Source: Candidatus Eiseniibacteriota bacterium (lineage in GTDB: Bacteria > Eisenbacteria > RBG-16-71-46). From it: 64,000 bases of DNA. Positions 45,001 to 48,000 of this stretch are shown here, one piece after another. A program made the position numbers. How positions within the stretch are numbered: the stretch's first letter is position 1; each line of letters opens with the position of its first letter. The stretch covers positions 256,001-320,000 of the forward strand of contig CAVQXP010000002.1 in assembly GCA_963717935.1 (NCBI GenBank), read 5' to 3'.

Positions 45001-48000
45001 CTCATCGCCGATGGCATGGCGCTCGGCTTCAACGGGCTGCGCGTGGCGCGGGTGCTCGGCTTCCTCGCCACGCTCTGGTCGGTGGCGCTCTTCCTGCAGC
45101 TCATGCGCCGCAACCTGAAGACCCCGGCCCTCTGCGCGGCCGCCACGGTGGCGTGGGCGGGGCACGCTTGGATGCTGCGCTGGTCGCTCTCGGGGATGGA
45201 AACGCCGCTCGCGGTGGCCCTCGTGCTGGCCGGGTTCGTGGCCTTCACCGAAGGCCAGCAGTGGGGCGCCCGCCCGGTGCGTACCGGCGCGTTGTGGGCG
45301 CTGGCCGCGCTCACCCGGCCCGAGGCCGCGCTGCTGCTGGGGCTCTGGGGCGTGTTCCTGCTCGTGGACACCGACAGCCGCCCGGGGCTCCGCCGCCTCA
45401 TCTTCGGCTCGCTGCCGCCGCTCGCCATCTACGGTGTCTGGCTGCTGTTCGCGCGCTTCTACTTCGGCACCATCCTGCCGCAGACCTTCATGGTGAAGGG
45501 GGCCGGACCGGCGGGCCTCGGCGTGCAGCTGGAGAACCTGTGGCGGCAGATCAGGATCGTGGGGGCCACCGAGGGGCTGCTGGCCGGGCTGCTCGTCGCG
45601 GCGCTGCTGGCCGGCGGCCCGAGCGTGTGGACCTGGCGGCCGTTCACGCAGCGCGCGCAGCGCATGCTCCCGTGGGTGTGGCTGGCCCTGGTGCCGGCGC
45701 TCTACGTCGCGCGCGGTGTCCCGGTGCGGTCGCGCGACCTGCTCCCGCTGCTGCCCGTGCTGAGCTGGCTGGCGTGGCGCGCGGGGGAGTGCTGGAGCCT
45801 GGGGGCGTCCGCCACGCCGCGCACGGTGCGCACGGTGGTGCTCGGCAGCATACTCGCCGCGCTGGTGCTGGCGCAGAACCTCGGGGTCTTCCACGGCGCG
45901 GTGCTGCCCCAGGTGCGCGCGCTCAGCACGGGACTGCGCGGGAGTCTCGTGCCGTGGGGCCGCTGGCTGCGCGCGAACACGCCCGCGCGCAGCGTGGTCG
46001 CCACGCCCGAGATCGGCGCGCTCGGTTATTTCAGCCGGCACCGCGTCGTGGACCTCGCGGGGCTGGTGACGCCGCAGATGGTGCCGTACCTCGAGCGCGA
46101 GGTGCCCGCGGACGCGATCGCCAACTTCCGCTTCGCTGCGTTCGCGCGCCCCGAGTATCTCGTGGACCGCGGGCCGCGCCCCGACGACCTGCGGCAGCGA
46201 AGCCGCTACGCGCCCGCGCTCGCGCTGCTCGGCGTGGCCGGTGTCCTGAGCCCGGTCCCGGAACGGCCCACGCCCTTCTACTCCCTCTATCGAGTGGACT
46301 GGGCCGCGGCCGATTCCCTCGGCGCGCCAGCGCGGTCAAGCGGCCTGAATCGCTGAGGCTGCACGTCCGTGCAGTATCTGGCGAGGAAATACCTTCGTGG
46401 CGCGCACAAATTCTTTTGACATCAGCACAAGGCGCGTCTATGTTGCCTCGCGTGTGGGATGAAGTGGTGCAATGAGGCACGAAGTGGTGCATCGCGAGTT
46501 CTAAGGGGACCGGGAGATGGCAGCGTTCTACGGCACCGAGAAGGGCACGCTCGACCCGAAGCGCCGGTTGAGCGTTCCCGTCTCTTTGCGCCGCGACTCC
46601 TTCTCGAAGAAGACGCACGACCGCTTCTTCCTCAAGTACGGCTCCGAAGGCTGTCTGCAGCTCTACTCCGTCGAGGACTGGCGCACGATGGAGGAGAAGC
46701 TGAACCGGCTGTTGAAGGGCGACCGCGAGGACCGCGACTTCGTGTTCGCGTTCCTCGAGGACGCATGTTGGGTGACGGTGGACGCCCAGGGACGGATCAC
46801 GATCCCACCGGCACTGCAGGACCGCGCAGGTCTCGGCAAGGATGTCGTACTGCGCGGCATCATCGGCTACATCGCCATCTGGAGCGCGGAGAAGTACGGC
46901 CAGAAGAAGACCGTGCTTACCGACGACTCGCTCGCCCGGCTCGAGACGCTGAAGCTCAGGGACTGAGCCCCATGGTCGCCCGACCGCAGAGAGACGAGGA
47001 CCGCATCGCCATGGCGCTCAACCTCGAGTTGAGCGGAGGGCGGCACGGTGCCTCGGCGCGCATCGAGCTGCGCGAGCGCCCGGCCGGCCGCGTCGTGCTC
47101 TTCGCCCTGCGGGGCTGGCTCGACCGCTCGGCCGTCCTGCGCCTCGGTCGCACGCTGGACGACCTGGGCGAGCGCGGCATCGAGCAATTGCTGCTCGACT
47201 GCGCTCAGGTTCGCCACATCGACTACCGCACGGTGCCCGCGCTGGTGGAGGCGCTCGCGCGCTTCGAGAGCCGCGCGGGCGGCTACGTGGTCTGCGGCCT
47301 CTCGTCCTACCTGCGGGACCTGTTCCGGCTGGCGGGATGTGAGGCACGGCTGCGTTGCTGGCCTTCGGCGGCCGACCTGCTGGCGGCTCCGGCCGGATAC
47401 GAGTCGGACCGTGAGTTCGCGTCATGAACCGGTCCTGGTCGCCGAGGTGCTGGGTTTCCTGCGGAACGGCCCCGGGCTCTACCTGGACGCGACGCTCGGC
47501 GATGCCGGGCATGCCGAGGCGCTGCTCGAGGCCGAGCCTGGCGCGCGACTGCTGGGCTGCGACCGCGATCCAGCCGCGCTCGAGTATGCCGCCGGCAGGC
47601 TGAAGAGGTTCGGGACGCGCGTGCGCCTCGCCCACGCGACGTTCCGGGAAGTGCCGGCCGCGCTGACCGCGGCCGGAGGCGGGGGGTTGGTCGGAGCTCT
47701 ATTCGACCTTGGCCTGTCGTCAAGGCAGATCGACGACCCGGCGAGGGGGATGAGCTTCATGCAGGACGGGCCGCTCGATCTAAGGATGGATCCATCGCGC
47801 GGAAGGACCGGCGCGGAGCGGCTGGAGCAGACGGGAGAGGAGGAGTTGGGTGCCGTGCTGAGAGAGCACGGTGATGTGGCCGGGGCCCGATCACTCGCGC
47901 GGGCCCTGGTCGCGGAAGCCCGACAGGGCGGGCTGAGGACCACGCGGGCGCTGCGGGAGGCCATCGACCGCGCGCTCGGCGGACCGGCCCACCCGAGGCG

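Follow-up and report, generated by a model that had tools for sequence, protein, structure and literature searches.

Pmra, the promoter of the dcw cluster in E. coli and B. subtilis, is autoregulated by MraZ. LexA usually acts by repression, LexA-mediated activation being rare, and SidA is one of the SOS-induced inhibitors of division. To our knowledge, coupling of DNA damage to division without SulA-like proteins has been described in few model species only, and mraZ is not known to be a LexA target in Fibrobacter. For Fibrobacter succinogenes, Mazon and co-workers (2004) reportedly described TGCNC-N4-GTGCA as the LexA box. Literature searches with the Fibrobacter motif string and with Eisenbacteria plus LexA returned no match. 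Further SOS-induced division inhibitors are SulA, YneA, DivS and ChiZ (Cornish et al. 2014, PMC3998124). The same paper predicts a LexA-mraZ link within the SOS meta-regulon of human-gut Firmicutes, lists COG2001/MraZ as a putative SOS COG, with 74 COG2001 rows in its site table, and demonstrates by EMSA that B. subtilis LexA binds a site lying 125 nt before an mraZ gene. Its authors interpret this as connecting the SOS response with cell division in Firmicutes (PMC3998124). The claim of a genome-wide survey's note on the DNA analyzed here, that a direct LexA-mraZ link has not been reported, is thus incorrect.

The mraZ upstream region and its promoter

The genome under study belongs to an uncultured Candidatus Eisenbacteria organism from a family of uncultured sediment bacteria. 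Within the window, meaning the whole 64-kb stretch of DNA analyzed, the dcw cluster is complete from mraZ through ftsZ (62310-63545). The features surrounding the mraZ promoter are listed in Table 1. The palindrome TGCAC-N4-GTGCA occurs once in the window (46360-46373), compared with 0.11 matches expected from shuffles, and lies 157 nt before the mraZ ATG at 46517, as the survey's note had stated. Flanking bases c (46359) and g (46374) extend this box to a 16-bp palindrome. The stop codon of the upstream membrane-protein gene is located 3 nt before the box. A homologue of this gene is present in the same orientation in all 30 loci examined, its stop codon lying 0-119 nt from the box in 29/30 family loci and 337 nt away in the remaining one.

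Table 1 Features of the mraZ upstream region and adjacent genes (window coordinates)
Feature	Position	Strand	Supporting observation
Upstream gene, 527-aa polytopic membrane protein	44773..46356	+	conserved; Pfam: no match
Predicted LexA operator TGCAC-N4-GTGCA, TGCACGTCCGTGCA	46360..46373	.	exact in 60/60 + 3/3 family mraZ loci
A/T-rich tract acaaattcttt, UP-element-like	46405..46415	+	directly 5' of -35
Predicted main mraZ/dcw promoter TTGACA-N17-TATGTT	46416..46444	+	10/12 consensus positions; conserved in family
Four direct repeats GTGGG, GTGGT, GAGGC, GTGGT, read as MraZ operator	46454..46488	+	
mraZ, first dcw gene	46517..46966	+	Pfam MraZ E 1.7e-19
STAS-domain gene between mraZ and rsmH	46972..47427	+	Pfam STAS_2 1.3e-9, STAS 6.9e-9

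A promoter scan of 46200-46560 identified TTGACA-N17-TATGTT (46416-46444) as the sole sigma-70-like site, with a predicted transcription start near 46451. Directly upstream of its -35, a T-rich tract with the pattern attttctttTGACA is kept across the family, and the corresponding A/T-rich tract of this genome may serve as an UP element. Downstream of the -10, the direct repeats start at 46454, 46464, 46474 and 46484, i.e. with a period of 10 bp, and the other family loci likewise have GTGG repeats 3' of the -10. Based on work in E. coli and B. subtilis, we take these repeats to be MraZ sites. Both promoter and repeats had been noticed between box and mraZ by the survey, and our analysis agrees. 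The two features characteristic of a Pmra-type dcw promoter, mraZ as first gene of the cluster and direct GTGG repeats with a period of about 10 bp, are therefore both present. We also examined whether the mraZ -10 holds a second LexA half-site and rejected this: the sequence TAtgGTGCgcg after the -10 recurs in lexA promoters, and we take it to be an ordinary -10 with discriminator. Six RNA runs contain small shares of the window, all of them as contigs, which cannot show starts or levels. Four of these runs yielded a 675-nt metatranscriptome contig, which derives from a 97.5%-identical relative and has its first base at 46463, no more than a weak hint, and a 10-kb contig, possibly DNA, that crosses the region; neither shows a start, a strand or a level.

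Between the end of the box and the -35 there are 42 nt, and the box center is found about 84 bp before the predicted start (approximately -84), so that the box does not overlap the core promoter (-35 to +1) as a LexA operator would be expected to. A center near -84 is outside the core footprint of RNA polymerase and simple steric repression therefore cannot apply. In 59/60 family loci, the gap between box and -35 measures 21-51 nt (median 42); about 32 loci cluster at 41-46 nt and another 20 at 31-38 nt, and box centers are found near -62, -74, -78 and -84. Because these gap clusters differ by other than one helical phase, no helical face is fixed. The distance to the -35 is constrained while that to the upstream stop codon is loose, which supports the assignment of the box to the mraZ promoter rather than to the neighboring gene. 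This geometry is unusual for LexA, with a high-affinity-looking site placed about 84 bp before a strong promoter already under the control of a repressor of its own.

Conservation of the palindrome and its probable identity as a LexA operator

The family sample comprised 61 genomes from 28 genera, with one locus interrupted by a contig end. In all 60 loci for which 400 nt upstream of mraZ were available, the exact box is kept, as it is in three additional family genomes (3/3), giving 63 of 63 family genomes that have enough upstream DNA; the 8/8 conservation given in the survey's note thereby extends to a much larger sample. All ten arm positions are unchanged in the 60 loci, and beyond one base on either side conservation is at background level. 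Outside the family and its sister family, the exact box was found before mraZ in 0/53 usable loci, which include families whose lexA does have it. The mraZ box is restricted to these two families. In the sister family, it is located about 100 nt away from the promoter region. Three sister-family genomes carry two opposite-strand genes between the membrane-protein gene and mraZ, with the box remaining on the mraZ side, and there it could alternatively serve a divergent methyltransferase gene. When the lexA and mraZ upstream regions of 38 non-family genomes were compared by shared words, the TGCAC box emerged in 3/4 sister-family genomes, and one pair of CGAAC-type words emerged in a single genome (G119). 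In a family that uses CGAAC-N4-GTTCG, one-mismatch sites directly follow the upstream stop codon in 2/6 genomes, too few for us to claim a conserved mraZ site of this LexA type. Judged from these loci, this lineage conserves the box before mraZ and the dcw cluster.

The same box is found between the -35 and -10 of lexA in 30/30 family relatives, always 3-4 nt after TTGAC and in nearly all cases one base before TAnnnT, and at lexA in 11/11 loci of named Eisenbacteria. The lexA promoter of the genome under study likewise contains an exact copy, as expected for autoregulation. The genome scan returned five exact sites at the positions given by the survey. Four of these are promoter-proximal, belonging to lexA, two DUF6504 genes and mraZ, and one of the two DUF6504 genes shares an operon with dinB, placing the motif before a canonical DNA-damage gene. 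At lexA, the DUF6504 gene and the DUF6504-dinB operon, the box is positioned between a -35 and a -10, with TTGAC or TTGGCA 2-4 nt before it. The best site at recA has two mismatches. It should be noted that Markov models of order 1-3 predict 2.6-3.0 exact sites genome-wide, so that the count itself (5 vs about 2.8) is weak evidence and not significant on its own. Across the 61 family genomes, exact sites total 337 compared with 137 for a reversed control pattern. The per-genome median is 5 compared with 1 for the control, which places mraZ at the core of a very small regulon. One-mismatch matches designated 'intergenic' by our crude ORF map, which covers 66% of the genome, are mostly coding.

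The LexA protein of this genome, encoded at 654107-654703 of contig C4, matches PF01726 (DNA-binding domain, 56 bits) and PF00717 (Peptidase_S24, 113 bits), and the motifs VAAG, GDSM and TVKYY, containing the Ala-Gly, Ser and Lys residues, can be read in its sequence. It thus appears to be a canonical, cleavable LexA, with the winged-helix and cleavage-competent S24 domains expected of a cognate repressor. In 40 lexA loci sampled from across the phylum, changes of the LexA recognition helix are accompanied by changes of the box: LexAs of the STNGVRYYL type go with TGCAC/TGCNC boxes and those of the S(P/V)ATV.QHL type with CGAAC-N4-GTTCG boxes in unchanged promoter geometry, while for some LexA classes in this set no box was found. 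In this lineage, the palindrome very probably serves as the LexA-type operator, and we consider it highly likely that the copy before mraZ is itself a LexA operator.

Possible functions of the upstream box

We propose that a LexA dimer would occupy the palindrome about 84 bp before the predicted start of the strong sigma-70 mraZ promoter, and that the dcw promoter would thus receive two inputs, MraZ from downstream and LexA from upstream. An effect of box-bound LexA on the mraZ promoter appears likely, and we assign a probability of roughly 0.6 to the joint reading that the box is a LexA operator and acts on this promoter. The survey's note had likewise interpreted the box as a conserved LexA-type operator before mraZ and the dcw cluster, which our data bear out, but had assigned it to a separate LexA-repressed promoter with GTATCT as its -10, such that DNA damage would add MraZ, shut down dcw and thereby halt division. 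The sequence gTATCTg following the box does resemble gTATCTt at dinB. However, GTATCT, which the note considered a shared feature following the boxes, occurs after the mraZ box in this genome only, with five congeneric genomes reading gtctga, gtggcc, gtccac, gtcgga and gtcgta instead. Further, no locus has a -35 before the mraZ box, unlike lexA, dinB and DUF6504, the promoter scan is blank at the box with its sole promoter-like site downstream, terminator-like hairpins separate the box from mraZ in some relatives, and, as a weak hint, the RNA contig of the close relative has its start at 46463 instead of near 46380. With no conserved flanking hexamers, a separate promoter at the box was rejected for either strand, and we regard this part of the earlier interpretation as very improbable. 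Similarly improbable is that the box is not a LexA site at all but the binding site of another regulator, or that it folds as an RNA hairpin or terminator where the upstream gene ends. An inverted repeat immediately 3' of a stop codon, with a stem lengthened by flanking bases in some loci (L038, L039), would fit such a role. Yet the arms are invariant and lack compensatory changes in all 60 loci, there is no U-tract, and the identical sequence lies inside the lexA and dinB promoters and tracks the LexA recognition helix. A hairpin or intrinsic terminator was rejected due to these invariant, non-covarying arms and the lack of any terminator-like site in 46200-46560.

Two other explanations accept LexA binding and differ in its consequence. 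LexA could help the mraZ promoter from upstream, as a class I-like activator or an anti-repressor, in which case dcw transcription would decrease upon LexA cleavage during SOS and division would be delayed with no dedicated inhibitor involved. The box centers named above fall within the range used by upstream activators, and a search for the SulA family (PF03846) that recovered the E. coli control gave no match in this genome (93% complete). In contrast to activator-dependent promoters, however, the mraZ promoter is near-consensus (TTGACA, 17-nt spacer, T-rich upstream tract), helical phase varies among loci, and activation is an infrequent mode for LexA; we consider this explanation unlikely. 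LexA might also serve as a roadblock or insulator against read-through from the membrane-protein gene, with damage allowing transcription to reach or interfere with mraZ. That gene is co-oriented and ends shortly before the box in nearly all family loci, and neither an intrinsic terminator nor a U-tract was found in 46200-46560 of this window. Several relatives nonetheless have clear terminator-like hairpins with T-runs 3' of the box, between it and the mraZ promoter (e.g. L062, L063, L055, L059 and L017), the three sister-family genomes with divergent neighbors keep the box, and it is the -35 distance rather than the stop-codon distance that is constrained. A roadblock function is accordingly quite improbable.

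Modulation of the main mraZ promoter by LexA from upstream remains our preferred reading, and if LexA does act at this promoter, we slightly favor repression as its mode. Moderate repression by LexA would be the most likely mode, given that repression is usual for LexA and that this near-consensus promoter needs no activator. As a repressor, LexA would upon RecA-triggered cleavage allow more transcription of mraZ, and possibly of dcw, after DNA damage.

Comparison with known systems

Similar to Pmra of E. coli and B. subtilis, mraZ is the first gene here and GTGG-type repeats with a 10-bp period are located just 3' of the -10. Two differences stand out, specifically, the STAS-domain gene inserted after mraZ and an additional, conserved site about 42 nt 5' of the -35 that is predicted to be a LexA operator. 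Fibrobacter succinogenes, a related lineage of the FCB group, is said to use the same palindrome, and TGCNC variants are found in lexA promoters of families neighboring that of the present genome. SulA, YneA, DivS, ChiZ and SidA likewise represent LexA-controlled routes from DNA damage to division. They are small dedicated inhibitors with LexA boxes in their own promoters, whereas here the box is located at the master dcw promoter. Its perfect conservation at this promoter over 28 genera argues for selection on the link.

The closest parallel is found in gut Firmicutes, where a LexA box also lies far upstream of mraZ, at -125 compared with -157 here, in a different phylum and with a CGAAC-N4-GTTCG-like site instead of TGCAC-N4-GTGCA (PMC3998124). 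The lines of support differ as well, consisting of EMSA in Firmicutes (PMC3998124) and of family-wide conservation and a resolved geometry of the predicted promoter in Eisenbacteria. The Firmicutes case is an independent precedent for the Eisenbacteria site, which adds to a LexA-mraZ link already known from that group. We speculate, with considerable doubt, that LexA gates the master division promoter directly in this lineage and, independently, in some Firmicutes, with the damage checkpoint operating via the mraZ/dcw promoter and MraZ instead of a dedicated inhibitor of the SulA/YneA type. If true, LexA-mraZ wiring recurring in distant phyla would represent a widespread and overlooked branch of the SOS response. 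Because both phylum and LexA motif differ from the Firmicutes report, the LexA-MraZ connection is worth testing in a culturable system.

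Layout of the mraZ upstream region

The window lies on C2, one of the five contigs of this 3.02-Mb genome (G+C 71%). TGCAC-N4-GTGCA, the palindrome upstream of mraZ (the box, with two 5-nt arms), matches once in the window against 0.11 matches expected from shuffles. The division/cell-wall (dcw) cluster headed by mraZ is complete, co-oriented and ends at 63545. Apart from the TTGACA-N17-TATGTT promoter of mraZ, no sigma-70-like promoter was found in 46200-46560, and its predicted transcription start near 46451 places the box centre at about -84. In one metatranscriptome, a contig of 675 nt with 97.5% identity starts at 46463, some 12 nt beyond this point; contigs cannot fix 5' ends, and it is a weak hint, the sole one from RNA, toward the predicted start. 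The direct repeats past the -10 show what we take to be the arrangement of the MraZ autorepressor operator in E. coli and B. subtilis.

Features of the mraZ region (window positions) and of further box-bearing loci on contig C4
Feature	Position	Sequence or basis
Membrane-protein gene, 527 aa, polytopic	44773-46356	no Pfam hit; stop codon 3 nt before box start
Box	46360-46373	TGCACGTCCGTGCA; exact TGCAC-N4-GTGCA, 157 nt before mraZ ATG
A/T-rich tract	between box and mraZ -35	
mraZ sigma-70-like promoter	-35 from 46416, -10 ends 46444	TTGACA-N17-TATGTT; 10/12 consensus positions
Four direct repeats, 3' of -10	starts 46454, 46464, 46474, 46484	GTGGG, GTGGT, GAGGC, GTGGT; exact 10-bp spacing
mraZ	46517-46966	Pfam MraZ, E 1.7e-19
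STAS-domain gene (anti-sigma-antagonist type)	46972-47427	inserted between mraZ and rsmH
dcw gene order		mraZ, STAS-domain gene, rsmH, ftsI, murE, murF, mraY, murD, ftsW, murG, murC, ftsQ, ftsA, ftsZ
lexA promoter box		TTGACA-cgc-box-c-TAACCT (lexA strand)
IS200-like Y1 transposase-family gene, 152 aa	C4:653510-653998 (L284:111-599)	directly 3' of lexA, same strand
Small DUF6504 gene, first copy	C4:311865-312159 (L285:66-357)	exact box directly before it; TTGACG-ac-box-g-TAACGT
DUF6504-dinB operon	C4:1762874-1764438 (L286:75-1639)	exact box directly before it; TTGGCA-ac-box-g-TATCTT
recA box	C4:1242040-1242053 (L283)	TGCCCAAATGTGTA; adjoins TAGTAT -10-like hexamer

The box as a probable LexA operator

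We consider the mraZ box to be a LexA operator with a probability of about 0.9, based on four lines of sequence evidence: a canonical LexA, the boxes at lexA, a box-bearing Y-family polymerase operon (dinB) and the covariation of box and protein. One canonical LexA is encoded (DNA-binding domain 56 bits, Peptidase_S24 113 bits), whose translation shows, by reading, VAAG, GDSM and TVKYY motifs. An exact box precedes lexA in all 30 family loci examined, always 3-4 nt past TTGAC and nearly always one base before TAnnnT, which is the classical geometry of autorepression. The closest named relatives (mostly Candidatus Eisenbacteria) carry the lexA box at the same place in 11 of 11 cases.

Box and LexA type were compared over 40 lexA loci of the phylum, drawn from 16 families besides this one (f2, the sister family, to f17). 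LexA proteins with a STNGVRYYL-type recognition region go with TGCAC or TGCNC boxes (f2, with 4/4 exact, f3, f14, f6 and one copy each in f7, f12 and f17), and those with S(P/V)ATV.QHL go with CGAAC-N4-GTTCG boxes (f8, three of four f10 loci and one f13 copy), set in a TTGAC-N3-box-g-TAAnnT frame as in the TGCAC class. Neither box type was found at lexA of f4, f5, most f7 and most f13. The phylum has at least two LexA specificity classes with a common promoter frame (lexA loci L243-L282), and many of its genomes carry two to three LexA-like genes. In Fibrobacter succinogenes, TGCNC-N4-GTGCA is reportedly the LexA box.

Five exact boxes were found in the genome, at the same places that the genome-wide survey's note had given: one is intragenic and the others lie at mraZ, lexA, a DUF6504 gene and the DUF6504-dinB operon. 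Since Markov models of order 1-3 predict 2.6-3.0 sites, the count alone is weak proof, and placement and conservation carry the case. The two DUF6504 paralogues have 84 and about 89 aa, one of them followed by dinB, and boxes with ATCC/GGAT spacers, as at these genes, recur in many family genomes. A one-mismatch box, TGCACGGATGTTCA, lies about 20 nt ahead of the ribosome-binding site of the Y1 transposase-family gene. The recA box has two mismatches and no better site was found there; LexA control of recA may be weak or absent in this genome.

Conservation in the family and distribution in the phylum

Among 61 family genomes from 28 genera, mraZ was detected in every one, and the exact palindrome lies upstream of it in all 60 loci having 400 nt of upstream DNA; the contig of the 61st ends 149 nt before mraZ. 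Three of three additional family genomes also carry it. In a box-anchored alignment information is highest at the ten arm positions, for which the anchoring is circular, though the arms are present in every locus; the two outermost spacer bases and the single bases that adjoin the box on either side (c 73%, g 83%) have moderate values, and all other positions are at background. The median number of exact sites per family genome is 5, and that of the reversed pattern used as control is 1 (337 vs 137 in 61 genomes), so that the mraZ site is among very few in each.

The phylum sample comprised 121 genomes from 17 families, one genome being left out, and supplied 60 mraZ loci of non-family genomes. 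Among these loci, the exact mraZ box is confined to the sister family: three of the four genomes carry it, between -219 and -248; in the fourth, TGCTC-N4-GTGCA stands at -149, separated by 32 nt from a TTGACC. None of the 53 usable loci of the remaining families has it, including those of f3, f14 and f7, whose lexA carries a box (not counted here are two loci without a tblastn match and one of insufficient length). On this distribution, the wiring is an innovation of these two families.

In three sister-family genomes, a methyltransferase gene and a second opposite-strand gene stand between the membrane-protein gene and mraZ, with the box on the mraZ side. In these genomes, G089 (L294, 1189-2857), G116 and G138, all of one genus, translations of the inserted genes read as SAM-methyltransferase-like and as having a pterin-dehydratase-like C-terminus; here the box precedes the divergent gene by about 131 nt and mraZ by 219 nt. 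Separately, in a family with CGAAC-type LexA, two of six genomes (G119, locus L288; G126, locus L290) have a one-mismatch CGAAC-N4-GTTCG about 160 nt upstream of mraZ, a few bases past the upstream stop, which is where the family of the window has its TGCAC box; none was found before mraZ in the other four.

Probable action of LexA at mraZ and relation to earlier work

The box had been read in the survey's note as a LexA-repressed promoter of its own with GTATCT as -10. None of the other five genomes from the genus shares this hexamer (they read gtctga, gtggcc, gtccac, gtcgga and gtcgta), and no -35-like sequence was found ahead of the mraZ box in any family locus examined; lacking both a shared -10 and a -35, this reading was rejected. 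Transcription beginning at the box would, in several relatives, run into strong hairpins with T-runs before the -35 (loci L062 and L063, both reaching about -34 kcal/mol, and L055, L059 and L017). A terminator was dismissed, since a U-tract is lacking and the arms show invariance instead of covariation. Nor is the box tied to the upstream gene: the membrane-protein gene is co-oriented and conserved in 30/30 loci, but its stop precedes the box by a variable 0-119 nt (337 nt in one locus), whereas the box-to--35 gap is constrained to 21-51 nt (median 42) in 59 of 60 family loci, the promoter scorer having chosen a different site in the 60th.

Box centres across the family cluster near -84, -78 and -74, with one at -62. 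Sites so far upstream and so scattered would put LexA beyond the core footprint of the polymerase, without a constant helix face. Our preferred reading has LexA bound at the box as a repressor, probably a partial one, that acts on the mraZ promoter from upstream; its cleavage upon DNA damage would increase transcription of mraZ, possibly together with dcw. Activation by LexA, under which SOS would lower dcw expression, is unlikely, given that a near-consensus promoter with MraZ repeats looks strong and held down, not in need of help. Still less probable is a roadblock, which in its pure form is weakened by the sister-family box being kept on the mraZ side despite the opposite-strand genes between. 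As proposed in the survey's note, the outcome may be that extra MraZ arrests division. A search of the genome, which is 93% complete, gave no match to the SulA family, and the two DUF6504 proteins, uncharacterised products of box-fronted SOS genes, could equally be the effectors.

A LexA-mraZ link, which that note had called unreported, was in fact proposed by Cornish et al. (2014, PMC3998124). That paper ranks COG2001/MraZ among putative SOS COGs in a meta-regulon of gut Firmicutes, lists a site that precedes an mraZ gene by 125 nt and reports binding of B. subtilis LexA to this site by EMSA. No further report of such a link, or of LexA in Eisenbacteria, was found in the literature outside subscription journals. 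The wiring described here is a very well conserved new case of an already proposed link. Compared with the Firmicutes link, the Eisenbacteria case concerns a different phylum and a different LexA motif, and its promoter geometry is resolved, with the site unusually far upstream.
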